From Nitrospirota bacterium (GTDB lineage Bacteria > Nitrospirota > JACRHJ01): 64,000 nt of DNA. The stretch is taken from assembly GCA_021789495.1 (NCBI GenBank), contig JAJYJM010000001.1, positions 89,004-153,003 of the forward strand, given 5' to 3'. Below are positions 315 to 18,733 of the stretch, one piece after another; the stretch's first letter is position 1; every line of letters starts with the position of its first letter. Under the pieces are notes generated by a model. It did not search any database. It saw only the letters and a list, made by a program, of their open reading frames with translations, and was not told the origin of the DNA. A program made the translations under genes and the position numbers.

Positions 315-1706
315 CTATTTTTTTACCTCCGTATAAACCCCTTCGGAGGCCTCCTTCTCCGCTTTCATCTTCTCCCAGACTACATCCGCAATCCCGCAAT
401 ATTCCTCGGAATACCTGTCCAGGTCCTTCGCCAGGTCGGTCAGTATCTTCTCCGCGCCCTCGTGTGTGGCCCTGGCGCCTGAGGCCAGAACGGCCTCCCG
501 GATAAATTCCGGTTTGTCTATCATCATGCAGGGCGTCAGCATGTTCTTGTTCGTCTTCTGCCGCTCGCGTATCGTCTTGAAGAAAGGCGACATCAAAGCG
601 TCTTTTATCTTCGTCTTCCTGATGTTGTCCACGGCGAAGTGGCAGAACACGCACGGCTCTATATCTCCGTGGGCGTTTATGTGCAGATATTTCCTGCCTC
701 CCGCGAGGCATCCGCCCACGACATGGCCGTCGTTCCAGAAGTCGGCAAGCAGTATCGGCTTCGTCTTGCGTATTCGCCAGACAGTCTCCCTGAGCGCGCT
801 CCTCTGGCTCGGCGTGGGCATGAGTTCGATATTCGGCTCCCTGCCTATGGGTATATACGAGAAAAACCACCCTACCGTGCAGCCCTTCTCAATCATCAGG
901 TCGTAATACCCGTCGGAAGTAATGGTCTCGAAGTTCTTCCTTGTGGCGGTGCAGGAGAAGCCGAAAAGCACCCCCGCGTCCTTCAGGAGGTCCATGGCTT
1001 GCATGACCTTCCGGAAGTGGCCTTTGCCGCGCCTCAAGTCTGTCTCCTCCTCGAACCCCTCCACGCTTATGCAGGGCAGGACGTTGCCGAGTTCCGCAAC
1101 CTCTTTTACCTTCTTCTCGTCGAGAAGCCCGCCATGCGTAAATACCAGGAACGCGACATCGTCGTGCTTCTCGAATATCTTAAGCAGATCCTGCCGGAAG
1201 AAGGGTTCCCCGCCGGAGACGACGCAGAAGAACACCCCCATCTCCTTCATCTGGTTTATTACGCCGTCAACCTCGTCGAAAGAGAGCTCGTCCGTCCTCT
1301 TGTAGCTCCCGGCATAGCACCCGAAGCAGTTGAGATTGCAGCGCATAGATGGCGAAATGACGTAAAGACCGGGCGGGTAGAAACCTCCGCCTTCGTCCTG
1401 GAACGCCTTCCGCCTGTTCGTGCCGACGAGCATCTGGCCTACTATGAACGTCTTTACCAGCCTCTTGCGGACGTTCGGGTGGGTTTCCCTCAGTATCTTC
1501 TTTGCGACCTGGAGGCTGGGGTGGCCGTCCATGAACATCCGGCGGATGGAGCGGATTGCCTTGACGTAATGGTCCTTTTTGGCGAACTTCTCGGCAAGGT
1601 ATGTAAACCTGATAAGGTTTTCATCAGAACTGTTCCCGATAATCCCAAGAAGCGCGTCCGCCGCCTGGGTAATAGTATAATTTTTAAGCTGCTCAAAATA
1701 ACTCAT
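315..1706 (-). CDS. radical SAM protein with C-terminal Cys-rich (SPASM-like) region
   Basis: CNLNCFGC (CxxxCxxC) radical SAM motif and GGEPF motif. C-terminal Cys cluster (GGCLAGG...CVFCHF...). 463 aa. Confidence 0.8.
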   Translation of the reverse strand: MSYFEQLKNYTITQAADALLGIIGNSSDENLIRFTYLAEKFAKKDHYVKAIRSIRRMFMDGHPSLQVAKKILRETHPNVRKRLVKTFIVGQMLVGTNRRKAFQDEGGGFYPPGLYVISPSMRCNLNCFGCYAGSYKRTDELSFDEVDGVINQMKEMGVFFCVVSGGEPFFRQDLLKIFEKHDDVAFLVFTHGGLLDEKKVKEVAELGNVLPCISVEGFEEETDLRRGKGHFRKVMQAMDLLKDAGVLFGFSCTATRKNFETITSDGYYDLMIEKGCTVGWFFSYIPIGREPNIELMPTPSQRSALRETVWRIRKTKPILLADFWNDGHVVGGCLAGGRKYLHINAHGDIEPCVFCHFAVDNIRKTKIKDALMSPFFKTIRERQKTNKNMLTPCMMIDKPEFIREAVLASGARATHEGAEKILTDLAKDLDRYSEEYCGIADVVWEKMKAEKEASEGVYTEVKK

Positions 1707-1777
1707 TAATTAAATTACCCTCCGATCCTTAATCTGGTAGCGTAATTTTTACAGAATGGAGGGCGTCAAGTCAAGGA

Positions 1778-2689
1778 TTAATCCCAAAAATAATAAAAAT
1801 TAAACCATTGCTCAGGATGACGGCGGACATATTTCTCAAATATTATGGCTATTTTGCTTATATTTGCTTTTAAGTCCGACTCGACGTCTCCGGTATCCGT
1901 CATTTCTATCGGAGGCTCCGCCACGGGATGGTATCTGCCGTCTTCCCCCATAATCGTAAACGCGGGTATCAGCGGCGCGCCAGTCTTCATTGCAAGGAGC
2001 ACGGGGCCTTTCGGGAGCATGGCCGGTTTTCCGAAGAAATCGGCCATAATCCCGGATTTATTCAATACCCTGTCACCCTGTATCGCCACAAGTTCGTTTC
2101 TTTTAAGCGCATTATATGTGCCCAGAGCGAACCCGGCTGGATTATCAGGAGAGATTATTTTTATCCCTCTTATCTCCTTGTTTTTGTCCAGGAGCCGGTT
2201 CTGCTCCTCTGAGTTATACAGATACTGCACGACGTTCACCTTGAACCCCAGGTATTTCAGCAGTATGCCACCCAGTTCCCAATGACCGATATGCGCGGTG
2301 AGGATTATCGCCCCTTTTCCGGACTCGATGGCCTTTTTTATATTTTCAAGGCCAATAAATTCCGGAACTCTCGATGCAATCTCGGCGTCGCTCATGCGCT
2401 CGAAGCGGAAGAGGTCTAGCAGGAACCTCCCGTGCCTGCGCCAGAGCCTGCGCACTACCTTTCGCTTCTCACGCGGGGAGACATCCGGGCCGAGGACGTG
2501 GTCGAGGTTTCTTACCTGCTCCGGGACTATATTTTCCGATTTATAGTAGAACAGCCAGTCGGCGATCCTGTTTCCTATGAAATTGGCGACAGGGGCGGGA
2601 ATATATTTTGCTCCCCAGGAAATCCACCAGTAGATGGAATGCCTGTCCAGACGGTAGGAATGCGTCCCCTTAACCATCCAAAAGCCCAA
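1778..2689 (-). CDS. lysophospholipid/lipid A-type acyltransferase (LpxL/HtrB family)
   Basis: 303 aa with an AHIGHWE (H-x4-E/D-like) motif and general LpxL-like architecture. Overlaps the downstream rSAM by about 20 nt, so the start may be the internal Met at 2677. Confidence 0.6.
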   Translation of the reverse strand: MGFWMVKGTHSYRLDRHSIYWWISWGAKYIPAPVANFIGNRIADWLFYYKSENIVPEQVRNLDHVLGPDVSPREKRKVVRRLWRRHGRFLLDLFRFERMSDAEIASRVPEFIGLENIKKAIESGKGAIILTAHIGHWELGGILLKYLGFKVNVVQYLYNSEEQNRLLDKNKEIRGIKIISPDNPAGFALGTYNALKRNELVAIQGDRVLNKSGIMADFFGKPAMLPKGPVLLAMKTGAPLIPAFTIMGEDGRYHPVAEPPIEMTDTGDVESDLKANISKIAIIFEKYVRRHPEQWFNFYYFWD

Positions 2690-4226
2690 GCCTGCTCAAG
2701 GCTTCCCTCATAGGCCCCCGGAACGGGCGGGGAGTCTCGGAGAGAAATGCGTCCCTTACGTCCTTTACCAGGACTTTCCCGGAACCCTGAGATGCGGACG
2801 TTTGCGCCTTTTTCCCAACCGCCTTGCGCGCAATAGGCCGCAAAAGCGCCGGAACCTCCGACAGCACTTTCTCGAAGACCTCGCGGGCAAGGGCGTCCCA
2901 GGAGATTTCTCTCAAATTTGATTCCGGGCGCATCCCCTGAAGGATGCCCTTCGCGGGATAGCAGACCCAGTCCGGGTGTCTCTTGAAATAATCTCCGGCA
3001 ATCGAATACAGATTATCCCCCAGTTTGTCGGAGACATAAAACTTCGGCTCCATAAGCGGGTCGCCTGGGTCAATCAGCCTTTCTTTTACGGCGAGACGGG
3101 CAAGAGGCGTGCCGGGGTATATCCGGATTCCGGCGACGGCGAAGACCTTGTCGGGTTGGACGTCTTCCAGGGTGTCGAAGGTCTCCCTTAAGGTGTCAAT
3201 ATCCTCGCCGGGACCGCCGAGGATGAGGAAAACAAGGCACATCAACCCCGCTTCCTTTGCGGCAATTATTGACCTTGCGGCCTCTTTTTTATCGAAATTC
3301 TTGCCGAGTTTTGAAAGCACCCTGTCGGAGAGCGAATCCGCGCCGACCTCCACGCTCTCGCATCCCGCCCGTTTCATCTTCTCAAGAAGTTTTGCGTCGA
3401 GACCGACGGGGCTTGCGAGGCAGCCGAAAGAAGGCTTTATGCCGCGGCTGATTATTTCGTCGCATATTGCAAAGGCGTGTTCCGGCGGGTTGTTGAAGAT
3501 ATTGTCCACAAAATAAAAAGGCGCGGAAAGTCCCCTGTCCATCGCGCCGGCCATCTCCCGCACGACTTCTGCCGGTGGCCTGAGGCGCATTTTTACCCCT
3601 TCCAGGCCGGGATATGTGCAATAGACGCACGAGAACGAACATCCGCGCTTGGACTGTATGCCGAGCATGTCATATTTATTCGCCGGGAAAATATCCCACG
3701 CGGGCATGAAGAACGAACCGGAGCCGAGCTGACTTGGCGGGTTCCGGATATAAGAGCCGTCCTCGAACCTGCAAAGGCCCGGAACGGAAGCATGTGGGAT
3801 TTTGCCCTGAAGAGCGTCCGCAAGCATCGGCACGGACATTTCGCCCTCGCCGGCTATCCCGTAGTCCGCCCCCAGGAATTCGAGCGCGGCCTTCGGCATA
3901 ATGGAATAGCCCGGCCCGCCGACGACAACCGGGGCATTCGTTTCCCGTTTTATCAGGGCTATGGTTTCTTTGTAATCCGGCAGGAGGAAGCGGCTGGAAG
4001 ACTCTATGTTGCGTATCGAGACGGCTATGAGTTCAGGTTTGGCGGAAGCAATGGTATGCTTTAGCAGGGACTCCGGATTGTCCGCGAAGAGTAGGTCGAG
4101 CGCGCGCACGTCGTGCCCAGCCCGGCGAAGCGCAGAGGCTACAAGCGCAAGGCCGAGCGGGGCCGCCGTGAACGGTTCCGTTTCCCTGTTTACGGAAACA
4201 AGCAGGATGCGCAAATGAAACTCCAA
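2670..4226 (-). CDS. B12-binding domain radical SAM protein
   Basis: N-terminal B12-binding-like region (RILLVSVN...GLALVASALRRAGHDV), then RGCSFSCVYC (CxxxCxxC). 518 aa. Confidence 0.8.
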   Translation of the reverse strand: MEFHLRILLVSVNRETEPFTAAPLGLALVASALRRAGHDVRALDLLFADNPESLLKHTIASAKPELIAVSIRNIESSSRFLLPDYKETIALIKRETNAPVVVGGPGYSIMPKAALEFLGADYGIAGEGEMSVPMLADALQGKIPHASVPGLCRFEDGSYIRNPPSQLGSGSFFMPAWDIFPANKYDMLGIQSKRGCSFSCVYCTYPGLEGVKMRLRPPAEVVREMAGAMDRGLSAPFYFVDNIFNNPPEHAFAICDEIISRGIKPSFGCLASPVGLDAKLLEKMKRAGCESVEVGADSLSDRVLSKLGKNFDKKEAARSIIAAKEAGLMCLVFLILGGPGEDIDTLRETFDTLEDVQPDKVFAVAGIRIYPGTPLARLAVKERLIDPGDPLMEPKFYVSDKLGDNLYSIAGDYFKRHPDWVCYPAKGILQGMRPESNLREISWDALAREVFEKVLSEVPALLRPIARKAVGKKAQTSASQGSGKVLVKDVRDAFLSETPRPFRGPMREALSRLGLLDG

Positions 4227-4283
4227 ATCCCCCTCAATCCCCTTTGAAAAAGGGGGAAGCCGAAGGCAGGGGATTTTTCCCCG

Positions 4284-4859
4284 TTACTTCCTCAGTTTCT
4301 CCACGAAATCCGTCAGTTTGTCGCCCAGGTCCTGCGCCTCGTGGAGCACCATCTCCCATTTGTCGTTCGTGTTGCGCAGGCCGGATGAGTTCGAGTGCCT
4401 GAACTTTGCCAGTACCTCCCCGGTCTTAGCGTCCTTGATGTCGCCTTTTACGGAAACGTTGACGCCTCCCGCTCCCCAGCCTACAAACAACCTTGTGACT
4501 GCGCTTCCGAGGTCTATCTTCGTTATCTCGCCCTCGATTATCATATCGGCCTTGTCGGCGTTCTTCCCGTCCTTGTCAATCAGGAATGCGTTTATGCCAT
4601 CGCCCTTGAGGTCGCTGACGACCGTCTTGGAAAGCCGCTTCTGCACCCTTTCCAGGAATCCGCCCTTCATCCTCCTCATCTCATCCCTGTTCACGTTATC
4701 GTAGTTTATGTTATCCGTGGAAAAGAGTTTGACGCCGATGGATTTATAGTCTTTCAGACTTTTATCCGTAAGCACTTTCGTATGATCGAGACTTCCCGCA
4801 AAAGACAATGACGGCACGGCAATAACAGCCGTTAAAACGAGAAATAAAAATTTCTTCAT
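4284..4859 (-). CDS. secreted/lipoprotein of unknown function
   Basis: Signal peptide MKKFLFLVLTAVIAVPSLSFAGS. Charged, Lys/Asp-rich mature part with no catalytic motif. Confidence 0.5.
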   Translation of the reverse strand: MKKFLFLVLTAVIAVPSLSFAGSLDHTKVLTDKSLKDYKSIGVKLFSTDNINYDNVNRDEMRRMKGGFLERVQKRLSKTVVSDLKGDGINAFLIDKDGKNADKADMIIEGEITKIDLGSAVTRLFVGWGAGGVNVSVKGDIKDAKTGEVLAKFRHSNSSGLRNTNDKWEMVLHEAQDLGDKLTDFVEKLRK

Positions 4860-4940
4860 GTTCCAACCTCCTATCGTGATTAGATCTGAAAAATCCCACA
4901 GACTATCCCGATAAACCGGAAAATGCGCCTCCTTTCTTTT

Positions 4941-6296
4941 TTATTTACTTTTTAATATCTGTCTGGCCGCCGCCCTTCCGGAGAGTATCGACGATGCGGT
5001 GCACCCGCCGACCGGCAGAACCGTAGATCCTACGCAGAACAGTCCGCGCACCGGAGTCGCCGTAGACATCTTTTCGTAATGCACGCTTTCGGCAACCGGA
5101 GAGACCGAGCTTGTAAAACCGAAATTGGTCGCGTAATCGGCAGGGGTGTAAAGTCTGCTGTCCACGGTGTTTTCACTGAAACCCGGTATCAGTGAATCCG
5201 CCCTGCCCATTATCCTTCCGGCTTCCGCCTCAATCGCCTCTCTCGGAACGGCGCCTCTCGGGACAAGGAATTTTATCGTCCCCGCCAGATGTTCCTCCGC
5301 AGCGCCGTATGCGGCATGCGGGACGGAAATGACGAACATGTTGTCTTCCGGGAAAGAACCTTCCTTCAGCGTCCTGAACATCCCGCTGACGCCGGCCGGG
5401 AACATGGCATAGACATGCGCGCCGGGGATTATTTTAGCACCTTTCTTAAACACTGTAAATACGCTCGCCATGCTGAATCCTTCCTTGTAGTAGCCGAGCG
5501 TGTTAAGAAATTCCGACGGGAAATCTTTTCTGTCTGCAAGAGAATGCACCGTGTGAAGGATTCCAGTCCCGCTTATTACATTTACCGACTCCATCTCCCT
5601 GCCGTCGAGCAGTATTCCACGCGCACTGCCGTCCCGGATGATTATTCTGTCGGGCTGCGCATTATACACTATCCCCCCGCCGTTTTCGCGTATGACTGAG
5701 GCCAAGAGTTCCGGCAGTCTCCCGGAACCCGCCCTCGGTATAAACGGCTTGTCGTATCCGTACGTCCTGCCGAAGACAAGATTGAACCAGTGCGAAGGCA
5801 TGTTCTCAGGATTGTTGCCGGAAAAAAACGCCCCGACGTTGAATATCTCCCTCAGGCTCCCGTTTTCCGTAATCCTGTTTACGAGTTCGCTGTACCCGGA
5901 TATTTTCCTGTAGCGGTTGAACATTATCTGTCCACCCGTCCGAAGCCCCAGTTTTCCCATATCTCCGGCGTTCATGCCCATGCCCCGGAAATCCCGGAAT
6001 GTATGAAGGCCGGGCGGGATTGTCATGGATGAATTTCCGTGCCTTGCGATAACCTTGAACCATACGGGGTCAAGCTCTTTTTTCTTGCCGAGTTCTGAAA
6101 ATATCCCCAGTATCTTTTTCCCGAAATAGTCCGCGCCGATGTCGAAGCGATGGCCCATAAGCTCCACGCTCCGGCAGCGCCCGCCCGGCTCGGACATCTT
6201 CTCAAGCACAAGCACTTTCCTGCCGGCCCGCGCGAGATACGCCCCGGCGGACAGCCCGCCCAGCCCCGCGCCGATTATTATCGCGTCATATTTCAT
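4941..6296 (-). CDS. FAD/NAD(P)-binding oxidoreductase, phytoene desaturase (CrtI/CrtD)-like
   Basis: N-terminal dinucleotide fold MKYDAIIIGAGLGGLSAGAYLARAGRKVLVLEK. About 450 aa, typical of the CrtI family. Confidence 0.7.
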   Translation of the reverse strand: MKYDAIIIGAGLGGLSAGAYLARAGRKVLVLEKMSEPGGRCRSVELMGHRFDIGADYFGKKILGIFSELGKKKELDPVWFKVIARHGNSSMTIPPGLHTFRDFRGMGMNAGDMGKLGLRTGGQIMFNRYRKISGYSELVNRITENGSLREIFNVGAFFSGNNPENMPSHWFNLVFGRTYGYDKPFIPRAGSGRLPELLASVIRENGGGIVYNAQPDRIIIRDGSARGILLDGREMESVNVISGTGILHTVHSLADRKDFPSEFLNTLGYYKEGFSMASVFTVFKKGAKIIPGAHVYAMFPAGVSGMFRTLKEGSFPEDNMFVISVPHAAYGAAEEHLAGTIKFLVPRGAVPREAIEAEAGRIMGRADSLIPGFSENTVDSRLYTPADYATNFGFTSSVSPVAESVHYEKMSTATPVRGLFCVGSTVLPVGGCTASSILSGRAAARQILKSK

Positions 6297-7491
6297 TTTT
6301 TATTCTCTCGACCGCCTGTTTAGCCGTATATACGCACGACTCTATGCATGGCAGGCGGTAGAAATCTCCAACGATGTAAGCTCCGGGGACTTCCGTCTCG
6401 ACGCCCCTTGTCCTGCTTGCCGGAGGGATGAGCGTTATCGCGGGCGACCAGCCGACCTTCGGAAGCTCCTTGTATTTCCCGAACACCGCTTCAATATCAG
6501 CGTCGGGCCTGTAGAGAAACATCCCGGCGATGGTCCTGCCGTCCGGGAGATGCTTCATCTCTCCGCCGTGCACGCCGTGCGGGTTGTTGAATTTCGAGAA
6601 GAGAAGGACGTCGTACTTCCGATATTGCGGACAGCGCGCCTCGAATATGACGCCGCGCGTCTTGGTGCACTTCATATTGAAATTTATCTCCGGCATTATT
6701 CTGCCGAGGCTCTCCTGCCCGGTGGCGAATACGATATTATCTGCGGTTTCCTTAAACGGCTTTTCGTCAGGCCCTATAATATTTACATCAAATGCTCCCG
6801 ATGAGTTCTTCCCGGCGCTCTCGATCCTGAATCCCGCCCTTACAACGCCCGGCATTCGCCGGACGAGTTCCGACGCCACGTCCGCCATGCCCTTGTGCGG
6901 CACGCGTATCGGCGTATCGCCGTAAGCGAGCAGAAAGAGGCCGTGGTCGGCGGCGATGTGCGGCGGGTCTATGTATCCGAAGCTTGAGAACGGCTGGACG
7001 ATATAATCGAGCATTTTCCTGGAATATCCCATGTCCCTGACACAGAACTCTTCGAGGGAGACGGAATGCAGTTCCTGGAGCTTCGGGTCCCAACTCTCAA
7101 GGCGGAAATCGAGACCCTTTATAAATTTTACGAGCCTCCTCCACTTCATATATTCCGAAATGGAAAAAAGCCCGCTTCTGAACATCGACCATGAATCGAG
7201 ACCGGTAATTTTATCGCCGACCTGGAGCGCGAATTTCTTCAGCCTTATAAGCTCATGCGGCACTCCAAGCTCGGCAATCAGTTCCGTAAAACCGCGGTTC
7301 AGTTCCGGCGCGAACATCATCGCGCCCTTGTTTATGTATACACCTTCATACTCAAGCGTCGCAAAACGACCGCCGGCTTCCGGCCTCTTTTCGTATACGA
7401 CAGGCAGGAAACCTTCATTCCGGAGGTAGTAAGCGGTGGACAGGCCGGCGATTCCCGCGCCGAATATCAAAATCCTTTTATTCAATTGCAT
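6286..7491 (-). CDS. FAD-dependent oxidoreductase (amine oxidase/protoporphyrinogen oxidase-like)
   Basis: RILIFGAGIAGLSTAYYLRNEGF...EKRPEAGGR Rossmann motif. Overlaps the neighbouring genes by 10-11 nt. Confidence 0.7.
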   Translation of the reverse strand: MQLNKRILIFGAGIAGLSTAYYLRNEGFLPVVYEKRPEAGGRFATLEYEGVYINKGAMMFAPELNRGFTELIAELGVPHELIRLKKFALQVGDKITGLDSWSMFRSGLFSISEYMKWRRLVKFIKGLDFRLESWDPKLQELHSVSLEEFCVRDMGYSRKMLDYIVQPFSSFGYIDPPHIAADHGLFLLAYGDTPIRVPHKGMADVASELVRRMPGVVRAGFRIESAGKNSSGAFDVNIIGPDEKPFKETADNIVFATGQESLGRIMPEINFNMKCTKTRGVIFEARCPQYRKYDVLLFSKFNNPHGVHGGEMKHLPDGRTIAGMFLYRPDADIEAVFGKYKELPKVGWSPAITLIPPASRTRGVETEVPGAYIVGDFYRLPCIESCVYTAKQAVERIKNEI

Positions 7492-9118: not shown

Positions 9119-9132
9119 ACATGCCTTTCGCC

Positions 9133-9191
9133 GTCATTCCCGCCCCGGCTTTATACATACCGGGGCAGGCTCCGGTGTGAATCCAGGTTTT
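9133..9191. repeat. REP/MITE-like intergenic repeat (GTCATTCCCG...hairpin...GAATCCAGGTTTT)
   Basis: Near-identical inverted copy at 40929-40982. Related copies at 19664-19701, 19755-19783 and 34031-34061. Contains a CCCCGG/CCGGGG stem. Confidence 0.7.
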
Positions 9192-10398: not shown

Positions 10399-10631
10399 GG
10401 CCTTGCCGCCTCGTTTGAGAAATATTCTATTATCCCGCGAACCGTGCTCCCCCCGTTTATCGCTCCGTCAGGAATCTTAACCGAGAATTCCTTTTCCAGC
10501 GCAACCAGCAGTTCGACCATCTCCGTCGAGTCAACTCCAAGGCCCGTTTTTAAAGTGGCTTCCGGACGCAGCTCGCTTTTGTCTATGCCAATCTCCCCGA
10601 AGACCTTCTCTATTCTCTCTTCTACCGGCAT
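10395..10631 (-). CDS. acyl carrier protein
   Basis: 78 aa. GVDSTEMVELLVALEKEF carries the phosphopantetheine-Ser motif (DSx). 4-nt overlap with the upstream gene. Confidence 0.8.
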   Translation of the reverse strand: MPVEERIEKVFGEIGIDKSELRPEATLKTGLGVDSTEMVELLVALEKEFSVKIPDGAINGGSTVRGIIEYFSNEAARP

Positions 10632-10646
10632 CGCTGTACCCCTTGC

Positions 10647-11852: not shown

Positions 11853-13123
11853 GCCCGCCTCAGTATCATGGATGAATGAATGCCGGAGAAGCCGCTGCTC
11901 GTTTTTATCAGCACGTTCACCTTTTTGTCTCTGGCCTCGTTCGGAACATAGTCGAGGTCGCATTCCGGGTCTTGCTCCCTGTAATTTGCGGTCGGGGGGA
12001 TTACGCCGCGCTCAATGACCATCGCCGACAGCGCGAGTTCAATGGAATTCGCCGCCGAAAGCGGATGTCCTATCATGGATTTTATGGAGCTTACCGGCAC
12101 GCGGTATGCCATGTCTCCGAGGGCGGATTTTATCGCGTTCGTCTCGAAAACGTCGTTCTGCTCCGTGGAGCTTCCGTGCGAGTTTATGTAGTCTATGCCG
12201 GAGGCGTCAACCCGCGCCTCGTCCATTGCGAGCCTTATTGAACGGGCCAGCGCGTCGCCGTCTTTCGGCAGGTCTGTCATATGGTATGCGTTGGATGTCG
12301 AGCCGAAGCCCGCTATCTCCGCATATATCCTCGCGCCGCGCCGGACGGCATGATCGTATTCTTCGATGACGAGGATCCCCGCGCCTTCCGAGATGACAAA
12401 ACCGTTCCTTGTCCGGTCAAAGGGGCGCGAGGCCGCCTCCGGCTCGCCGTTATGCTTCGAGAGCGCCTTTATGACGTCGAACGCCGCAAGGGCGATAGGC
12501 GTAATCGGGGCCTCGGACGCCCCGGTTATCATAACGTCGCATAGGCCAAGCTGGATGTTTTCGTATGCGTAGGCAACGGAATCGGTCCCCGCCGTGCAGC
12601 CGGTCGAAATGACGCACGACCCGCCTTTCAGCCCGTAGCGCGCGGCAATGAAATTGGCGGGAGAATTGAATATCGACGCATCGTAGAGAAACGGCGAAGC
12701 AAGCGCCGGGTCGATGGGCTCGTGTCCGTTCTGCGTAACTCTCAGGAACTCCTCTTCCATCCACTTCGTGCCGCATATGGCGTTTGCAAGCGCCACGCCG
12801 CACCGCTCGCGGTTCACCTTATCAAACTCCAGCCCGGCATCATCCACCGCTAGCTTCGCCCCGGCCAGGGCGAATTGCAGATACCTGTCCATTCCCGACG
12901 CATCTTCATGCGAGATGCCGAAGAGCGCGGGATTAAAACCCTTCACCTCCGCCGCTACCTTCGACAGAAACCCGGAGGTATCGAACGCCGTGATTAACCC
13001 CGTCTGGGTGCGCGCGTTTATCATGGAGTCCCAGAAGGCGTCCTTGCCGATGCCTCCCGGAGCGATGACGCCCAGGCCCGTTATGACAACCCGCCGGACG
13101 GTCGACCGTCTTCGGAGATTCAA
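11849..13123 (-). CDS. beta-ketoacyl-ACP synthase (KS-alpha type, FabF/type II PKS KS family)
   Basis: VISTGCTAGTDSVAYA active-site Cys motif, HGSST His motif, GLGVIAPGG N-terminus. The start is uncertain: the 13171 ATG overlaps the upstream gene by 52 nt, and a TTG at 13123 overlapping the TGA stop (TTGA) is a plausible alternative. Confidence 0.85.
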   Translation of the reverse strand: MNLRRRSTVRRVVITGLGVIAPGGIGKDAFWDSMINARTQTGLITAFDTSGFLSKVAAEVKGFNPALFGISHEDASGMDRYLQFALAGAKLAVDDAGLEFDKVNRERCGVALANAICGTKWMEEEFLRVTQNGHEPIDPALASPFLYDASIFNSPANFIAARYGLKGGSCVISTGCTAGTDSVAYAYENIQLGLCDVMITGASEAPITPIALAAFDVIKALSKHNGEPEAASRPFDRTRNGFVISEGAGILVIEEYDHAVRRGARIYAEIAGFGSTSNAYHMTDLPKDGDALARSIRLAMDEARVDASGIDYINSHGSSTEQNDVFETNAIKSALGDMAYRVPVSSIKSMIGHPLSAANSIELALSAMVIERGVIPPTANYREQDPECDLDYVPNEARDKKVNVLIKTSSGFSGIHSSMILRRA

Positions 13124-13389
13124 GCCTCCACCCGCCTGACCTTGAACCGCACGTACCCTCCGTCCGGGCATGTCACGGTATTGATGGAGTTCGGGTCTTC
13201 CATGAACGGATATTTCGCGCCGAAGTTCAGCGCGAATAGCACCGGGAAGAGCGTGTGGTATGCCGCCCCGCAGAAACCCTCGGGCGTCCTGAGCCCCAGC
13301 ACCTCCACCTCCTGCCCCTGCTCGTATTTATAAAAACACGGCCCGGAGACCTCTTCGACGGAAATAATCATCTTCTTCGGATTTGCCAT
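13120..13389 (-). CDS. TIGR04076-like small Cys-containing protein (paralog 2)
   Basis: 89 aa. Motifs GPC..., PEGFCGAAYH, FPxM, TCPDGG, FKVRRVE match my recollection of the TIGR04076 family. Paralogous to the adjacent gene. Confidence 0.5.
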   Translation of the reverse strand: MANPKKMIISVEEVSGPCFYKYEQGQEVEVLGLRTPEGFCGAAYHTLFPVLFALNFGAKYPFMEDPNSINTVTCPDGGYVRFKVRRVEA

Positions 13390-13655
13390 TATAACTTCCT
13401 CACTTTAAATGTAAGATTCCCGCCGTCCGGGCACGTCGTCCGGACGCAGCCTTCAGCGTCCTTGAACGGAAATTCCGCGCCGAACGTCCAAGCGTAAAGG
13501 ATAGGGAACAGCGAATGATACGCGCCGTAGCAGAAGCCGTCCGGCGGCGTCACGAAGTCTTTTACCTCGAAAGTGTCGCCCTTTTTCAATCCCTTGAAGC
13601 ATTCCTTGCCGACTTTATCCACCGTCAGGATAAAACCCGGGAATTCCATCATCAT
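13389..13655 (-). CDS. TIGR04076-like small Cys-containing protein (paralog 1)
   Basis: 88 aa. KECF, DGFCYGAYHSLFP, TCPDGGNLTFKVRKL. Tandem paralog of 13120-13389. Confidence 0.5.
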   Translation of the reverse strand: MMMEFPGFILTVDKVGKECFKGLKKGDTFEVKDFVTPPDGFCYGAYHSLFPILYAWTFGAEFPFKDAEGCVRTTCPDGGNLTFKVRKL

Positions 13656-14650
13656 AGTCCGAACCTCCTCAGCATTTCATCGACCGACAGATACCTGTTC
13701 GTTTTTTCGATCTCCTTCACAAGCTCGACGGCCTTGCCGTTCAGCCTCGCCTCGCGCCCCGTCCTGTCTGCCTCCCTGACTACCTCGCCGTTTAAATAAT
13801 CCACCTCGGAATCCCTCCCGCGCATGACGCTCTGGAGGACGGAGCCGGGTAGCGGCAGGTGCGAAAGACCGCGCATTATGTTCCCGTAAATCTTAGGGCC
13901 TATTTCCTTCGGCGCGCACAGAAGCGATTTAAGTTTTTCGAGCGGAAGGTCCGGGAGGTCTGCCATCTCGCTGCCTGCGGCCTCGAAAACATCCCATGCC
14001 TCACGCATAAGCGAGAGGCCCAGGGAGCAGACCTCGTCTTCCGAAAACGTCTCCTGGAGGTCTTTGCCGAGGATGCAGGCGACGGCGTTATTTAAGTTCA
14101 GTATCAGCTTCGCCCTATGCACGGCCTGTATGTTTTCCGTCACATGCACCTCGAAGGCGGCGGACAGTATCTTCCCGACCTTCTCCACGATACCCCCGCC
14201 ATCCCGCCCGAATGCCTTGCCGATGACAAGCCCGCCGGGGAAATTATACGTAACGCGCCCAGGCTCTTTATACGTGGCTCCGAACATGACGACGGAAGAC
14301 ACTATCCGCTTGCTGCCGAGGATTCTTCCGGCTATCTCGTCGGCCATAAGACCGTTCTGCATCGTCAGCACCGGGAAATCTCCCATCCCCGCCATCTGCC
14401 TGCAAGCCGCTTCCATGTCCTGCGTCTTTACGGCAATCAGCGTCAGGTCTGGAATGAATTCCAGGGTTCTCGCGGCGTAGATTACATAATTTCTCCCGCC
14501 GGCTATGCCGTCGATTGAAAGGCCGTTATGATTGATTGCTCTGACCTGGCGCGGGTCCCGGCTCACGAGCGTAACCGCGTGCCCCTTTTCATGGAGCATC
14601 GCGCCCGCGACGCATCCTATTGCCCCTGCGCCGATTACAGCGATTTTCAT
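13652..14650 (-). CDS. ketopantoate reductase (ApbA/PanE) family 2-dehydropantoate 2-reductase-like oxidoreductase
   Basis: MKIAVIGAGAIGCVAGAML Rossmann start. C-terminal SVLQSVMRGRDSEVDYLNGEVV matches the KPR family signature. Confidence 0.75.
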   Translation of the reverse strand: MKIAVIGAGAIGCVAGAMLHEKGHAVTLVSRDPRQVRAINHNGLSIDGIAGGRNYVIYAARTLEFIPDLTLIAVKTQDMEAACRQMAGMGDFPVLTMQNGLMADEIAGRILGSKRIVSSVVMFGATYKEPGRVTYNFPGGLVIGKAFGRDGGGIVEKVGKILSAAFEVHVTENIQAVHRAKLILNLNNAVACILGKDLQETFSEDEVCSLGLSLMREAWDVFEAAGSEMADLPDLPLEKLKSLLCAPKEIGPKIYGNIMRGLSHLPLPGSVLQSVMRGRDSEVDYLNGEVVREADRTGREARLNGKAVELVKEIEKTNRYLSVDEMLRRFGL

Positions 14651-16590
14651 GAATCGATATCCGCTTCGCTTAAGATAACGCCGGTTTCGTTTACGTTCTC
14701 ATCCCATAAAATACTGTTTATTATCTCCTTCGGCCTTCCCGTGTTGATGTCCCAGCTGTGGCAGGCGTAGTATTCGTCGAGCATCCCGTCGTAGAGCGCC
14801 CTGTCAAGCTTCATTTTTCTTGACTCTTCGTCCAGCCCGTCCTGCAATGCAAGCGGCTCGAAATATCTCGCGGGCGGATAGTCGTCTTTGCGTCCCACGC
14901 CTTCGCGGCAGATGAACCTGCGCTCCACGTCAGTAATCGCGTTGCCCGCCTCGAACACCTCTTCCGGGGTCATATCAATGCCGCTTGCCGTTTTTATGAG
15001 GTCGCTGAAGACCCTGAAGCCGAATACGCCCGGTTCGGGCAGCGTGTGGAACGCAAGGAGCTTGCAAAGGCCGAGGGCGTCGAAAAGCGCGAGGTAGCAC
15101 TCCCACCACCAGACCACGCGCCCCTTGCCGCCATATTTCAGCGGGTCCGGCTCCACGGGGCCGCCGTAGATTCCCTCCAGGAAATTCCTGTCGAACTCGA
15201 AGGCCTCCCACGGGCACCGGCTGCGCAGGTGATCCGCGCCCCTGGTTGAAGTGGAGACGCCAAGGGCGAACGCCTTGATGAAGCGAAGGTCTACCGGGTC
15301 GGACTGCGGGAGGTTCTTTACCCATATCAGGCGGCTTTTCGATGCTTCTCCGAGCTTTGCCGAGGCTTCTTTCGCGCCGTCGGCAAGGAAATCTCCAAAA
15401 CCCCTTCGGAACGCAATATCCTCCAGAAGCCCGGCGACCGTCTCCGGAGCGTTCCAGTCGAGACCGACTCCGCCAGTCTCGGCGTCCCCTATGATGCCTT
15501 CCTTGTATAACTCTATCGCCCAGGCGATGATGTTTCCGGCGGAGCTTGCGTCTATTCCGAGGCGGTTAAGCCTGTCGTTCAGCATCAACACGGCCTCGGC
15601 GGAATTTATGCCGAGAACCGGCCCCATGTGTCCCATAACGCCGTATTCCGGGCCTTCGCCGGAAAGCCCGGCGTGCTTTCCTTTATCTATCCTGTATGAA
15701 TGCCTGCATGAGACTACGCAGTTCCTGCACCCGCGCCTGCCGGAATAGTAACCGGTTTCAAGCGTCTGCGGGGAGAGGTCTCCCGGCTCTTTCATTTTCG
15801 TGGACAGGCCGTTATACGCCCGCCCCATCTCGATATTCGTGTTTATTACATTATAGAGATGCCCGGTCCCGTAACGCGCAAGGTCCTGCGTAAGGAACTC
15901 CGCCTTCAATTTCCTGTTTATTTCGCGCGTCAGAGACGCGAAGTTTTCGGCGTCGCGCGGATGCGTTTTCCCGCTATCGACCGCCACGACCGCCTTGAGG
16001 TTCTTGCTCCCCATAAGGCAGCCCATGCCCGTGCGGCCCGCGGCGTTCTTCCTGCCGTGCATGATGCAGGCGAAGCGCACGAGGTTCTCTCCCGCGGGGC
16101 CTATGCATGCAGTCTGAACCCCCTCGCCGCACTGCTCCTCTATAGCCCTCTGCGTATCGAAGGAGTCCATGCCCCAGACGCGCGAGGCGTCCTTTATCTC
16201 GGCAATCGCGCCGCCGCCGTTTTTCCTGATGAGCAGGTAAACAGGTTTTTTTGATTTCCCCGTAATGAATAGGTGCCTGACGCCCGTGGAAACGAGGGCG
16301 CATCCAAAATCGCCTCCGATATTCGCGTCTCCGAAAAGGCCGCTCTCCGGGCTTTTGCCGGTAACGGTCAACCTCGCCGATGACGGCCCCGGCATCCCGG
16401 TTAATAGCCCGGCCCCGAATATCAACGGGTTTTCCGGACTCAGGGGGTCAAGCCCGGCCCCGGTGTTTTCAAGCAGAAGCGCGCTGTTTATTCCCCGCCC
16501 GCCGATATACCCGCGAATCAAGGCTTCCGGCATATCTCTGGTTTCACAGGAGCCGGAGGATAAATTTATGTATAAAATCTTATGGTTCAT
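14647..16590 (-). CDS. aldehyde:ferredoxin oxidoreductase (AOR) family, tungsten/molybdopterin enzyme
   Basis: 647 aa. N-terminal MNHKILYINLSSGSCETRDMPEALIRGYIGGRG is typical of the AOR family, and the Cys ligands for the 4Fe-4S cluster are present. Confidence 0.85.
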   Translation of the reverse strand: MNHKILYINLSSGSCETRDMPEALIRGYIGGRGINSALLLENTGAGLDPLSPENPLIFGAGLLTGMPGPSSARLTVTGKSPESGLFGDANIGGDFGCALVSTGVRHLFITGKSKKPVYLLIRKNGGGAIAEIKDASRVWGMDSFDTQRAIEEQCGEGVQTACIGPAGENLVRFACIMHGRKNAAGRTGMGCLMGSKNLKAVVAVDSGKTHPRDAENFASLTREINRKLKAEFLTQDLARYGTGHLYNVINTNIEMGRAYNGLSTKMKEPGDLSPQTLETGYYSGRRGCRNCVVSCRHSYRIDKGKHAGLSGEGPEYGVMGHMGPVLGINSAEAVLMLNDRLNRLGIDASSAGNIIAWAIELYKEGIIGDAETGGVGLDWNAPETVAGLLEDIAFRRGFGDFLADGAKEASAKLGEASKSRLIWVKNLPQSDPVDLRFIKAFALGVSTSTRGADHLRSRCPWEAFEFDRNFLEGIYGGPVEPDPLKYGGKGRVVWWWECYLALFDALGLCKLLAFHTLPEPGVFGFRVFSDLIKTASGIDMTPEEVFEAGNAITDVERRFICREGVGRKDDYPPARYFEPLALQDGLDEESRKMKLDRALYDGMLDEYYACHSWDINTGRPKEIINSILWDENVNETGVILSEADIDS

Positions 16591-16598
16591 TCCAGAGT

Positions 16599-16841
16599 TT
16601 ATTCCGGCATATTAAACCCGGAGTTCCTTGCGGTATCGCGCATACTCTTTTGGAACGGCGCCGGGGTTTCGGAGATAAACGCGGCGACAATATCCTGTTC
16701 TTCCACCAGCGCGGCTCCGCGCGCGGAAGCGTTTTCCTCCGCCTTCTTCCCGGCCAGCTTCTCCGCCATTTTCCTCTGAAAAAACGGTATCGTGGAAATC
16801 ATCTTATCGAACTTAGCCTTTCCTCCATGCTCCCAATCCAT
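16599..16841 (-). CDS. small protein with PCP_red-like (protochlorophyllide reductase 57 kDa subunit C-terminal-like) domain
   Basis: 80 aa. DIVAAFISETPAPFQKSMRDTA resembles the C-terminus of the 17327-18733 product (DDICAAWLRATPAPFRKLIEEKI). Confidence 0.4.
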   Translation of the reverse strand: MDWEHGGKAKFDKMISTIPFFQRKMAEKLAGKKAEENASARGAALVEEQDIVAAFISETPAPFQKSMRDTARNSGFNMPE

Positions 16842-16856
16842 AAAAATATCTCCTTT

Positions 16857-17330
16857 TTATTTCATGCCTCCTGCCTGCCCTCGCGCGGGAATTTCTGCGC
16901 CCTCAAGGGCGGATTTCATCGCGTTCAGTATCCGGACTATGTTCTCGTCGTGCATCCTGCGGTATGCAAGTTTCCATAAAATCCGGTTTATGCCGCCCAT
17001 GACTTCGTAGTCCATCAGGAAATGGACTTCGTTTGCCTTTTCGCTTTGTTTTATATACACTTGGTCCGTGCCCCGGAACATGCCGGTGATGAATCTCCTC
17101 GATATTTCATATCCGGGGGTTATCGATATTACTTCGACGTCCCATTCCGGCGCGAACGGCCTGTAAACCTTCTGGTGAAAGCACGTGCCGACCTTTACCT
17201 CCCCGGAATCCGCCCGGCTGTATTTCATGGGAGATTCGCCCGGCCACCAGGCGCTCTCGCCCCAGAGGACGATTTCTCTATATATCGCGTCTACGGGCGC
17301 GTTTATCGTTATAAAATGATGGCTTATCAA
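16857..17330 (-). CDS. SRPBCC family protein (polyketide cyclase/dehydrase-like)
   Basis: FITINAPVDAIYREIVLW START-fold N-terminus. Start reset to TTG at 17330, overlapping the upstream TGA. The ORF-track ATG at 17405 would overlap the upstream gene by 79 nt. Confidence 0.6.
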   Translation of the reverse strand: MISHHFITINAPVDAIYREIVLWGESAWWPGESPMKYSRADSGEVKVGTCFHQKVYRPFAPEWDVEVISITPGYEISRRFITGMFRGTDQVYIKQSEKANEVHFLMDYEVMGGINRILWKLAYRRMHDENIVRILNAMKSALEGAEIPARGQAGGMK

Positions 17331-18733
17331 CTCCTCATCTCCATTATTTTTTCCTCTATCAGCTTCCTGAAAGGCGCGGGAGTAGCCCTCAGCCATGCGG
17401 CGCATATGTCATCTACGCCCACCTTCCCGCCATTTGAGGCGCGAACCTCGGACGCGATCTTTTTCTCGGCGGCCTGACGAAATACTGCGGGCACAAAGTC
17501 AAGGAGCTTCTTATGCGCCTTGCCGGCATCCGCGTCCCATTCATCGGCGGAACCCGTTGAATCTTCACGGTAAATATCGCCGGAGACCAGGGATTCCAGC
17601 AGGGCCTCATATTTTCCCGCCGCCACGCCGACCATCCCTTCGTCCACCTTCAGCGCTTTTCTGGCAATCAGGCCGCAGTAGCCGCACTCCCGGCAGTCGC
17701 TCGTGGCGCAGTCTTTCGTCTTGAAAAAGCTGAGGAAATTAGATGGAATCCTGGAGTTGTCCAGCACGAGGCCTTCCGTGACCGGATAGTCCGTAATATC
17801 GGCGAATTCCATTAATTTTGCGGTATTTATATACTCATCCCTAAGGAGATATTTCACGTTTGCCGGCAGAAAGGCCTTCTTGCGCGGTAGATTTAGAAGC
17901 TCGACCAGATTTCCATCGTATCGTCTTTCGGAATAAGCCTTAAGGTAGGACAGCAGCGTCTCCGTGGTCTTGTAGCGGTCGATAATCTTGAGGCAGTCGA
18001 TCCCGGCCATCTCGTAATCCTCGACATCTTCCGGGCGTATCCACCTGATTTTTATAAGTTCTTCCGGATGCCGGACCTTTTCGCTCGTGCAGGAAAAATA
18101 GCAGTGGTCTACTAGAAATCCCTCAGAGGAATGCCCGCCCTGGGATCCATGCGTCATTACATTGGCGTGATAGAAAGAGCGCGGGCACCCGTATAGGCAG
18201 CCGGGGTTTGCAATCAGAATAAGTTTACACTTTACTGCCTTACGGATGGCCTCCAACGTCTTGAAATCCCTGTTTATTTCCTCTGAGAGCACAATGGCGT
18301 CGGCGCCTATGGATTCCCAGTACTGGGCCTTCCGCACGCTCTCGACCCGCGCCCAGCTCGATACGGCAATCTTAAGTTCCGGGAAATGCCTCCTGATTAT
18401 CTCAAGGAGATAGGGAATTGTTACCGTCACCCAGTCCGCCCCGGTGGACTCTACCCAGCCTATGTGTTGGATTATCTTGGCGAATTCGTCTTTTCTGTAT
18501 TCCCTGTTGTCGAGACAGGAGGCGTTCAGCAGGAAATTGAAGGAATATCCGGCCTTCCTTGCGGATTCGATATATTTTCCGGCGTCCGATTCGGTTATTT
18601 CCGGGGCTACGAAGGACGCCCTGCCCCCTGCGATAAGGCTTCCAGGGATGCCGCCGAAAAGCTCCACGTCCGGAAATTTCTCCAGTCCTTTCAGGAGATT
18701 AACGTCCCAGTTGCAGGCCAGTTCGAATTTCAT
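17327..18733 (-). CDS. U32 peptidase-family-like TIM-barrel protein with C-terminal PCP_red-like domain
   Basis: The N-terminus ELACNWDVNLLKGLEKFPDVELFGG has the pattern of U32 proteins (ELLxPAGN..LKAAI..GADAVY.G). It has a Cys cluster GCLYGC...CYFSC...CRECGYC and the C-terminal PAPF motif. Family assignment is tentative. Confidence 0.4.
   Translation of the reverse strand: MKFELACNWDVNLLKGLEKFPDVELFGGIPGSLIAGGRASFVAPEITESDAGKYIESARKAGYSFNFLLNASCLDNREYRKDEFAKIIQHIGWVESTGADWVTVTIPYLLEIIRRHFPELKIAVSSWARVESVRKAQYWESIGADAIVLSEEINRDFKTLEAIRKAVKCKLILIANPGCLYGCPRSFYHANVMTHGSQGGHSSEGFLVDHCYFSCTSEKVRHPEELIKIRWIRPEDVEDYEMAGIDCLKIIDRYKTTETLLSYLKAYSERRYDGNLVELLNLPRKKAFLPANVKYLLRDEYINTAKLMEFADITDYPVTEGLVLDNSRIPSNFLSFFKTKDCATSDCRECGYCGLIARKALKVDEGMVGVAAGKYEALLESLVSGDIYREDSTGSADEWDADAGKAHKKLLDFVPAVFRQAAEKKIASEVRASNGGKVGVDDICAAWLRATPAPFRKLIEEKIMEMRS

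Follow-up and report, generated by a model that had tools for sequence, protein, structure and literature searches.

The window analysed here is a 64,000-nt stretch of the genome of a Nitrospirota bacterium (GCA_021789495.1, contig JAJYJM010000001.1), and coordinates are window positions unless a related locus is named. At positions 315-19287, twenty-one genes lie on the minus strand, and by tiling of open reading frames (ORFs) 98.3% of the block is coding. Judged from its gene content, this block is probably one biosynthetic operon, fronted by a PadR-family regulator, for an aromatic polyketide that would be finished by oxygen-free chemistry in an anaerobic Nitrospirota bacterium encoding dissimilatory sulfite reductase (Dsr); we give this reading a probability of roughly 0.78. 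An earlier sequence-only reading had ended the block at 18733. It extends slightly further, to a PadR gene (18730-19287) that overlaps the gene of a U32-like protein by 4 nt. The genes and boundary features, listed from the upstream end with family scores in brackets, are as follows.

19347-19375, minus strand: best sigma-70-like promoter match within positions 1-20000 (TTGACA-17-TATTAT, 11/12, with extended TG)
18730-19287, minus strand: PadR-family transcriptional regulator, first gene of the block (Pfam PadR, 65.8 bits)
17327-18733, minus strand: U32-like protein with a C-terminal PCP_red/DUF2621-like domain (Peptidase_U32, 50.5 bits; cut-off 22.4)
16857-17330, minus strand: p157, a 157-residue divergent SRPBCC protein resembling TcmN-type polyketide cyclases, assigned through its homologues
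16599-16841, minus strand: p80, an 80-residue stand-alone PCP_red/DUF2621-like protein, paralogous to the tails of the U32-like protein and of the B12-binding radical S-adenosylmethionine (SAM) enzyme
14647-16590, minus strand: aldehyde:ferredoxin oxidoreductase (AOR) family protein (AFOR_N 231.7 bits, AFOR_C 296.5 bits)
13652-14650, minus strand: ketopantoate-reductase-family NAD(P)H reductase (KPR; ApbA 106 bits and ApbA_C 58 bits; TIGR00745 172 bits)
13389-13655 and 13120-13389, minus strand: two tandem TIGR04076 small Cys-rich proteins of 88 and 89 residues (41.9 and 52.4 bits; cut-off 33)
11849-13123, minus strand: ketosynthase (KS) alpha, KSα, with the Cys176/His316/His353 triad intact (Cys in TGCT, His in SHG and GHP)
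10647-11852, minus strand: KSβ, a chain-length-factor (CLF)-type partner (active-site Cys replaced by Ile, both His lost)
10395-10631, minus strand: acyl carrier protein (ACP; PP-binding, 40.5 bits; phosphopantetheine-site Ser in GVDSTEM, DS motif)
9631-10398, minus strand: PF04199 'Cyclase', OxyN/DpsY-type, metal-dependent (106.1 bits; HxGTHxDxPxH at H65)
9190-9627, minus strand: SRPBCC aromatase/cyclase, TcmN-type (Polyketide_cyc2 47.1 bits, Polyketide_cyc 43.9 bits)
8393-9118, minus strand: iron-sulfur flavoprotein (FMN_red 69.7 bits; CX2CX2CX5C from C50)
7482-8441, minus strand: Amidohydro_2 protein (77.6 bits)
6286-7491, minus strand: CrtI/amine-oxidase-superfamily flavoprotein B, CrtI_B (Amino_oxidase PF01593, 64.9 bits)
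4941-6296, minus strand: CrtI/amine-oxidase-superfamily flavoprotein A, CrtI_A (Amino_oxidase PF01593, 60.2 bits)
4284-4859, minus strand: DUF4410 secreted protein (DUF4410 61.1 bits; N-terminal signal peptide, no lipobox Cys)
2670-4226, minus strand: 'ladderane-type lipid' B12-binding radical SAM enzyme that ends in a PCP_red/DUF2621-like tail (B12-binding 59 bits, Radical_SAM 67 bits)
1778-2689, minus strand: LpxL/HtrB-type acyltransferase of the lysophospholipid/lipid A family (Lip_A_acyltrans 148.1 bits; below every equivalog cut-off)
315-1706, minus strand: radical SAM/SPASM enzyme, last gene of the block (Radical_SAM 71.5 bits, SPASM 32.1 bits; cut-off 21.5)
231-306, plus strand: tRNA-Phe(GAA), downstream boundary of the block (tRNA gene call)

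The largest intergenic gap in the block is 81 nt, and 12 of the 20 gene junctions overlap. Relatives were collected by scanning an alignment of KSβ homologues against one genome per GTDB species, which gave 476; the best 80 of these loci were taken with 10-kb flanks, and many of them end at contig ends, so that the family counts given below are lower bounds. The gene order from PadR to the SPASM enzyme is whole in Nitrospirota loci down to 53-78% protein identity, with differing flanks, and the order of all 21 genes is also kept in a metagenome contig (L092) whose B12-binding radical SAM enzyme is 51% identical to that of the window. PadR stays at the same position in the Nitrospirota loci L005, L008-L010, and L012, and the flank upstream of it varies. 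Because the block is 98% coding, with small gaps, overlapping genes, and an order that is conserved while the flanks change, it is read as a single unit. The best promoter match sits about 60 nt upstream of the PadR start; it is a consensus match only, and since the total of promoter-like sites was not above that of shuffles, only the position of the best hit was used. No strong internal promoter or terminator stood out within the block in the same scan. A recent horizontal-transfer island beside tRNA-Phe was considered and rejected, there being no anomaly of GC content or skew (0.53-0.58 in the block versus 0.51-0.60 in the window).

The genes for the scaffold are those of a polyketide synthase (PKS) of type II. 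The best solved relatives of KSα are the actinorhodin KS (1TQY_A, 410 bits) and the Photorhabdus anthraquinone KS AntD (6SMO_B, 387 bits), with FabF at 348 bits or less, and the protein falls below the FabF equivalog cut-off of NCBIfam (458.9 versus 493.75 bits). The KSβ gene overlaps that of KSα by 4 nt. Since KSβ has lost the active-site Cys and both His, it is by its sequence a catalytically dead, CLF-type subunit. Canonical CLFs use an active-site Gln for decarboxylative priming; this Gln is missing from KSβ, which has Ile at the position in the window and R, I, S, V, N, or T across 21 aligned relatives. In addition to the PF04199 and SRPBCC cyclases, p157 is read as a second, divergent SRPBCC cyclase because 6 of 12 aligned homologues match PF10604 Polyketide_cyc2 (best E 4.3e-6); the window protein itself has no Pfam hit, its match to the other SRPBCC protein of the cluster by hhalign is weak (E 0.005, probability 7%), and a profile search of the PDB was also weak. 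Genes for a short-chain dehydrogenase/reductase (SDR) ketoreductase and FabA/FabZ/ApeI-like genes are absent from the window cluster by Pfam annotation of its ORFs. A starter-unit ligase is absent from it as well; AMP-ligases sit upstream of the relatives L084 and L085. Taken together, the scaffold can be regarded as settled at the level of predicted protein families: a complete type II PKS of aromatic, non-actinomycete 'ancestral' type, and not a plain lipid system.

Membership of the scaffold in the ladderane or fatty acid synthase (FAS)-like lipid systems was rejected on the grounds that KSα is actinorhodin/Ant-like, that there are three cyclases, and that a ketoreductase/dehydratase set is missing; the likeness was kept as a resemblance of the 3' module (CrtI_A to the SPASM enzyme). 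A related possibility is that the two KS proteins build a fatty-acyl chain, reduced or polyene, of the ladderane/polyunsaturated hydrocarbon (PUHC) or aryl-polyene type, with the CrtI-like proteins as desaturases and the radical SAM enzymes cyclising or methylating it. The TIGR04072-like B12-binding enzyme, the two 'phytoene dehydrogenase'-like genes, the radical SAM genes, and the LpxL-type acyltransferase are indeed found together as in anammox bacteria, Desulfotalea, and aryl-polyene-like clusters, and by score KSβ is nearer to FabF (245 bits) than to the actinorhodin CLF (170 bits). This possibility is nevertheless highly unlikely, as the cluster has three cyclase-type proteins in place of a ketoreductase/dehydratase/enoyl-reductase set, KSα is closest to the ketosynthases of aromatic PKSs, and an aromatic-acid-type decarboxylase is conserved.

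Among characterized aromatic systems, the ant cluster makes the anthraquinone AQ-256 and the pcy cluster makes pyxidicycline. As here, the den, clr, ant, and pcy clusters have discrete KSα, KSβ, and ACP together with TcmN-type and OxyN-type cyclases, and the hosts of the dendrubin (den) and clostrubin (clr) clusters are also strict anaerobes; the component order here differs from the ancestral layout of den, ant, and pcy (PMC7693217). The den cluster has two cyclases and one oxidoreductase only, besides regulators and transporters (PMC7693217). Compared with all four, the present cluster has a KSβ without the Gln, and it conserves the TIGR04076 pair, KPR, Amidohydro_2, and one or more B12-binding radical SAM enzymes with the PKS. 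The Nitrospirota version goes further beyond them with AOR, the U32-like protein, the iron-sulfur flavoprotein, two CrtI-like proteins, the LpxL-type acyltransferase, and the SPASM enzyme.

The available passages of a 2023 survey name Nitrospirae, Ca. Omnitrophica, Chloroflexi, and Planctomycetes among the sources of KS-CLF hits in a 'primarily non-actinobacterial clade' (PMC10132072). These phyla are the same as those found here; as presented in those passages, the survey deals with antiSMASH condensation-domain pairings and KS-CLF only, and the passages hold no description of accessory genes, of O2-independence, or of a core of TIGR04076, KPR, and B12-binding radical SAM proteins (PMC10132072). 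Literature searches on the cluster family returned no account of its accessory genes, core, or product beyond this KS-CLF catalogue.

The sequence-only reading had named seven enzymes in the block (the SPASM radical SAM enzyme, the B12-binding radical SAM enzyme, AOR, the U32-like protein, the iron-sulfur flavoprotein, Amidohydro_2, and KPR), and all seven identifications proved correct at their coordinates by Pfam and NCBIfam. Its statement that cytochrome P450, Rieske oxygenase, antibiotic biosynthesis monooxygenase (ABM), and flavin monooxygenase are missing also agrees with the annotation, for none of the 21 ORFs matches such families beyond a generic N-terminus that binds flavin adenine dinucleotide (FAD). 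A signature scan of 3217 ORFs from the window cluster and 88 related loci gave no P450 or Rieske signature, and no oxygenase was found among the recurrent families examined (those of the window cluster and ten more run on Pfam) or in the Pfam-annotated contexts. The two CrtI-like proteins could have been O2-dependent monooxygenases; by family they are not, since they belong to PF01593 and share only the FAD-binding N-terminus with the class-A enzymes. Both score below the cut-off of 238 bits for crtI_fam TIGR02734 (CrtI_A 87 bits, CrtI_B 26 bits). The best solved relative of CrtI_A is CrtI itself (4dgk), and both proteins match solved structures through the FAD-binding N-terminus only.

Genes for DsrA, DsrB, and DsrK lie in the window (49292-51649 and 57821-60067); their products score 586, 530, and 582 bits, respectively, each exceeding its NCBIfam cut-off, and there is also a DsrM match that is below its cut-off (188 versus 300 bits). 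The Dsr genes point to an organism of the dissimilatory sulfite/sulfate-reducing type and hence to an anaerobic lifestyle. The nearest relatives are all metagenome-assembled genomes (MAGs) named 'Nitrospirae/Nitrospirota bacterium', and the exact AOR protein is also encoded on a contig of one Nitrospirota MAG (GCA_027340465.1).

The AOR protein aligns over residues 5-624 to the Pyrococcus furiosus enzyme (1aor) at full length with 282 bits, and its [4Fe-4S] ligands are present (Cys288-x2-Cys291-x3-Cys295 and Cys509). It shares with the P. furiosus AOR both domains and the CX2CX3C…C arrangement, and differs from it by lying inside a polyketide operon, upstream of KPR. By family the enzyme would use a pterin cofactor with W or Mo; no tungstate transporter turned up among the annotated window genes. 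A dearomatising reductase of the BamB type was rejected as its identity, since BamB matches the N-terminal domain only (146 bits) as against the full-length match to 1aor. AOR immediately precedes KPR in every one of the 12 displayed loci that carry it, which represent four lineages, and two clusters hold two copies; in the window the two genes share a 4-nt start/stop overlap. The fixed AOR-KPR-KS arrangement argues that the AOR is pathway-specific.

Every solved relative of the Amidohydro_2 protein is a non-oxidative decarboxylase, acting as ACMSD or on iso-orotate (IDCase), 5-carboxyvanillate (LigW), γ-resorcylate, or 2,3-dihydroxybenzoate (2,3-DHBA); the first 25 have modest E values of 1e-13 to 1e-8. 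By this resemblance the protein is probably a non-oxidative aromatic-acid decarboxylase. The compact motif of the Isf flavoprotein of Methanosarcina is defined as CX2CX2CX4-7C. The iron-sulfur flavoprotein of the block is 94-98% identical among close Nitrospirota relatives and 59-73% identical in other phyla.

The match of the U32-like protein to Peptidase_U32 spans residues 86-171 only, corresponding to profile positions 3-86 of 233, one third of the model. Two groups of Cys, C179/183/211/215 (CX3CX27CX3C) and C342/347/350/353 (CX4CX2CX2C), are invariant in six U32-like homologues. Like UbiU/UbiV, TrhP, and RlhA, the U32 proteins of O2-independent, prephenate-dependent hydroxylation, the protein has a U32 domain, and it has four invariant Cys after the barrel, where a [4Fe-4S] site would be expected, in a spacing of its own (PMC6747719, PMC10990095); unlike them, it has the second motif (CX4CX2CX2C) and a PCP_red-like tail, and its cluster has no UbiT-like SCP2 partner. 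The canonical Cys motif of U32 proteins is CX6CX15CX3/4C (PMC6747719). Identity to Escherichia coli UbiU is 19% (BLASTP E 0.029) and to UbiV 17%, and on the TrhP model of NCBIfam the protein scores 24 bits against a cut-off of 534. Hydroxylase chemistry in the U32 family has genetic evidence for UbiU/V only and is proposed for TrhP and RlhA (PMC10990095). From the pattern of Cys, the protein likely carries an iron-sulfur cluster; by extrapolation from a distant family, it may hypothetically be a candidate O2-independent hydroxylase or oxidoreductase.

The two TIGR04076 proteins are the most conserved of the cluster, with 54-72% identity across phyla where KSβ has 45-50%. They are always encoded directly upstream of KSα, carry three to four conserved Cys, and are fused into one protein of about 190 residues in most Omnitrophota (e.g. 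L084 8158-8727). The pair is an obligate companion of the KS genes. An AlphaFold2 (AF2) model of a TIGR04076 protein (pLDDT 85) has no fold match in the PDB. Another recurrent element is the PCP_red/DUF2621-like domain of about 75 residues, which occurs in three copies with invariant W, P, R, A, D, P, and F: p80, the tail of the U32-like protein (about 17327-17560), and the tail of the B12-binding radical SAM enzyme (about 2670-2920). In Omnitrophota, a stand-alone PCP_red-like gene directly follows that of the B12-binding enzyme. The domain may be a shared docking or substrate-presenting module. In L091, a homologue of the B12-binding enzyme with the same tail stands alone beside a toxin-antitoxin pair, which is uninformative.

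Every one of the best 80 loci is from a MAG of an anaerobe-type lineage. Omnitrophota contribute the majority, about 16 are from bins labelled Planctomycetales, 12 from Nitrospirota, six from Thermodesulfobacteriota/Syntrophaceae/Syntrophobacter, four from Dehalococcoidia, and a few from single other bins. With the Dsr genes of the host, this result goes against the possibility that homologous clusters occur mainly in aerobes. When the loci were searched by tblastn with the window cluster's 21 proteins and their co-directional ORFs were clustered de novo, KSα/KSβ were found in all 80 loci, ACP in 70, the PF04199 cyclase in 68, KPR and SRPBCC in 61 each, the B12-binding radical SAM enzyme in 58, TIGR04076 in 52, the p80-like protein in 51, and Amidohydro_2 in 48. 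The shared core consists of KPR, the TIGR04076 pair, KSα, KSβ, ACP, two cyclases, Amidohydro_2, and the B12-binding radical SAM enzyme. The sequence-only reading had proposed to look for co-occurrence of the gene set in other anaerobe genomes; families of these kinds do accompany the PKS again and again, in 80 loci of several phyla, so that the pattern is not a chance one. Of the seven enzymes described there as a tailoring complement, KPR and Amidohydro_2 belong to the conserved core and not to optional tailoring. Anaerobic tailoring of a polyketide or lipid scaffold, as that reading had it, is supported at the level of enzyme families, host, and distribution, the scaffold being the predicted aromatic type II PKS product.

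Accessory sets vary by lineage, including AOR, the iron-sulfur flavoprotein, U32, and a glycyl radical enzyme. AOR is present in clusters of Thermodesulfobacteriota, Dehalococcoidia, Syntrophaceae, and Nitrospirota; the iron-sulfur flavoprotein and CrtI_B are added in some clusters, and CrtI_B has copies of 44-47% identity in Thermodesulfobacteriota. Further strictly anaerobic enzymes are found in relatives, namely second copies of the B12-binding radical SAM enzyme and of AOR, and a glycyl radical enzyme together with its activase. The glycyl radical enzyme (PFL-like with Gly_radical) and activase are encoded in a Syntrophobacter-like locus (L085 14666-17967, the same as L028), between Amidohydro_2 and a second B12-binding radical SAM gene, and this is the only such case in the 80 loci. 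Xanthine-dehydrogenase-family molybdenum hydroxylases are water-dependent and O2-independent; one of them (FAD_binding_5, Fer2_2, Ald_Xan_dh_C) is encoded in a single locus, of Omnitrophota (L084 17975-21233). CrtI_B is an intact ORF of 401 residues in the window and two genes (173 and 242 residues) in the near-identical GCA_027340465.1 (L001 18169-19373), which indicates a frameshift or an assembly difference.

Clusters of the Omnitrophota type add an SDR ketoreductase, a major facilitator superfamily (MFS) exporter, and a set of PNP, MtnA, aldolase, and aldehyde-dehydrogenase genes. In L084 (1001-5422), and likewise in L018, L025, L030, L041, and others, PNP_UDP_1, an IF-2B/MtnA-like protein, a class II aldolase-SCP2 fusion, and Aldedh are encoded in fixed order. 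Beside two B12-binding radical SAM genes, this set looks like a salvage route for 5'-deoxyadenosine/methylthioadenosine (MTA). AOR and Aldedh never co-occur (0/29 loci). The Aldedh was considered as a stand-in for AOR, which is not claimed, as it is tied to the PNP-MtnA-aldolase order and more likely serves the salvage.

These findings bear on whether the lack of oxygenases carries any information. It may simply be usual for any cluster of a strict anaerobe, and part of the set may not be tailoring, the AOR for example disposing of the aldehyde from 5'-deoxyadenosine/MTA salvage. With its Dsr genes, the host would not be expected to have oxygenases anywhere in its genome; the Omnitrophota Aldedh follows the PNP_UDP_1, MtnA-like, and class II aldolase genes in fixed order and is never found with AOR; and both KPR and Amidohydro_2 are part of the core. 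ABM or FAD oxygenases are, however, a nearly constant feature of actinomycete type II clusters, so that their replacement here is informative about mechanism. The accessory families are the very classes that replace O2 chemistry (radical SAM, B12-binding radical SAM, glycyl radical, U32, AOR, and iron-sulfur flavoprotein), and in the 12 displayed loci AOR lies directly upstream of KPR and the KS genes, including loci without salvage genes, and is duplicated in two clusters. The uninformative reading is therefore unlikely.

A catabolic role in the anaerobic breakdown of aromatic or phloroglucinol-type compounds has also been weighed, in which the PF04199 protein would open the ring as a cyclohydrolase, Amidohydro_2 would decarboxylate, and AOR would oxidize aldehydes. 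All three families include enzymes of anaerobic aromatic degradation, and one relative is in a MAG from a benzene-degrading culture (ORM2a, L081). A dedicated ACP, the pairing of an intact KSα with an inactive KSβ, and the SRPBCC cyclases are marks of biosynthesis instead, AOR matches BamB in the N-terminal domain only, and an MFS exporter is common in relatives; a catabolic cluster is hardly credible.

At the 3' end of the block, the B12-binding radical SAM enzyme has CX3CX2C at C196. Its best family is TIGR04072 'lipid biosynthesis B12/rSAM' (334.7 bits, below the cut-off of 360; model positions 1-421 of 443), the next is BzaD (174 bits), and the nearest solved structure is the C-methyltransferase TsrM (130 bits). 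Homologues with 38-43% identity to it come from Brocadia, Geobacteraceae, Deltaproteobacteria, and an aryl-polyene-like cluster, which holds KS pairs, a ketoreductase (KR), a FabA-type dehydratase, MMPL, amine oxidases, and a glycosyltransferase. These homologues lie in lipid clusters of the fatty-acid/polyene type, and the window enzyme has CrtI-like and LpxL-type genes as neighbours next to a synthase of aromatic-PKS type. The SPASM enzyme, with CX3CX2C at C123, reaches no named subfamily (best 87 bits, cut-offs of at least 265) and is 90-96% identical in Nitrospirota relatives. FAS-like clusters with radical SAM and 'phytoene dehydrogenase' genes have been described in anammox bacteria and Desulfotalea (PMC2649909). 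The present cluster is like the ladderane, Desulfotalea, and aryl-polyene-like ones in having a TIGR04072-like B12-binding radical SAM enzyme, paired 'phytoene dehydrogenase'-like flavoproteins, radical SAM genes, and acyl or glycosyl transferases. The aryl-polyene and ladderane-like clusters differ by reducing KS sets, KR, FabA/ApeI-type dehydratases, methyltransferases, and MMPL, and by having no cyclases, and their B12-binding homologues of 454-470 residues lack the PCP_red/DUF2621-like tail of the window enzyme. By analogy, the resemblance of the 3' module to these lipid clusters suggests an envelope-anchored product. In two relatives, L092 (14230-21548) and L087 (9297-16796), the cluster lies directly upstream of POR, HemN, BamA, Skp, LpxD, FabZ, and LpxA, a context hinting that the product may end up much like an outer-membrane glycolipid. 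In L092 (7773-10004), a 743-residue fusion of glycosyltransferase families 4 and 2 (GT4+GT2) is inserted between DUF4410 and the B12-binding radical SAM gene.

The same module raises the question of whether two units merely abut, a PKS cassette (about 7482-19287) and an envelope-lipid module (315-6296) acting on a membrane lipid or lipid A. About 70 non-Nitrospirota loci keep the PKS core and lack the 3' module, the closest relatives of its B12-binding enzyme belong to lipid clusters of the fatty-acid/aryl-polyene-like sort, and in L087 and L092 the block is directly upstream of BamA-Skp-LpxD-FabZ-LpxA. In every genome found carrying it, however, the module is contiguous and co-directional with the PKS, its junctions overlapping or separated by no more than 81 nt (down to about 51% identity of the B12-binding enzyme), and no strong internal promoter or terminator stands out. 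Next to CrtI_A lies CrtI_B, which accompanies the PKS in Thermodesulfobacteriota as well, and the PCP_red/DUF2621-like domain is common to the B12-binding enzyme of the module and the PKS-proximal U32-like protein and p80. Two separate units are distinctly unlikely on this evidence.

A possible pathway for the single operon can be described as follows. KSα/KSβ would extend malonyl-ACP to a poly-β-ketone, and the cyclases would fold and aromatise the chain without C-9 ketoreduction, there being no SDR in the Nitrospirota version. Amidohydro_2 may then strip an aryl or terminal carboxylate, and AOR with KPR may interconvert carboxylate, aldehyde, and alcohol by means of ferredoxin and NAD(P)H. 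The B12-binding radical SAM enzyme would alkylate or rearrange carbon, and the U32-like protein, with the iron-sulfur flavoprotein and the CrtI-like proteins as redox partners, might carry out O2-free hydroxylation or dehydrogenation. Finally, the LpxL-type acyltransferase could attach the product to a carrier, acyl or lipid, destined for the envelope, possibly acting with DUF4410, the SPASM enzyme, and, in relatives, the glycosyltransferase.

Several points weigh against an oxygen-free aromatic polyketide operon of this kind. All reaction steps are deduced from family membership, an 'entirely O2-independent' character is not provable from sequence, and a cluster free of oxygenases is to be expected in a strict anaerobe. 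The oxygen tolerance of the MAG lineages is judged from taxonomy and gene content, and CrtI/PPO-type flavoproteins can take O2 as electron acceptor in other organisms. The identity of the U32-like protein to UbiU/UbiV is 17-19% and its Cys spacing differs from the canonical CX6CX15CX3/4C. The B12-binding enzyme scores just below the cut-off of TIGR04072, a family with no demonstrated reaction. The 3' module is confined to clusters of the Nitrospirota type and could act on another lipid. Lastly, the missing Gln of KSβ and the missing starter ligase leave chain initiation unexplained.

To our knowledge, what is known of the tailoring of aromatic polyketides rests nearly all on O2-dependent ABM anthrone oxygenases, flavin monooxygenases, and P450s. 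Clostrubin and the dendrubins, among the few known aromatic polyketides of anaerobes, leave open how rings are oxidized, reduced, decarboxylated, and alkylated without O2. Candidates for these steps recur as a defined set in the cluster and its relatives: AOR beside KPR, the B12-binding radical SAM enzyme, the U32-like protein, the iron-sulfur flavoprotein, the glycyl radical enzyme of one relative, and the TIGR04076 pair. We know of almost no natural products from Nitrospirota, Omnitrophota, Dehalococcoidia, and Thermodesulfobacteriota. If the reading is confirmed, the question becomes experimentally testable and oxygen-free biocatalysts for aromatic chemistry could be gained.

A more far-reaching proposal, speculative and doubtful as a whole, would make the cluster the best-equipped member of a large, anaerobe-restricted clade of aromatic PKSs (at least 476 species genomes). 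The TIGR04076 pair and KPR would be new obligate synthase-associated subunits, and the chemistry would include ring hydroxylation of the U32 type, ferredoxin-driven carboxylate reduction by AOR, carbon tailoring by B12-binding radical SAM enzymes, and docking or presentation of a planar substrate by PCP_red-like domains, with a glyco- or acyl-anchored envelope product and not a secreted antibiotic. If true, iron-sulfur ring hydroxylation of the U32 type would be the first use of such chemistry in natural-product biosynthesis.

Outside the block, NfnAB/GltD-like iron-sulfur flavoproteins are encoded at 44440-49020. The same 64 kb holds cobalamin-pathway genes (a CbiC fusion, a CobA-type uroporphyrinogen methyltransferase, and a cobyrinic acid a,c-diamide synthase) as well as SAM synthetase and S-adenosylhomocysteine (SAH) hydrolase, the genes of both groups lying at 21054-22139, 42411-43196, 60783-62186, and 34139-36699. 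A second PP-binding (ACP-like) gene, of 88 residues, is found at about 22800-24500 (L001 1177-2855), outside the PadR block and upstream of ExbB/ExbD, where it adjoins a family 2 glycosyltransferase and NTPase_1.

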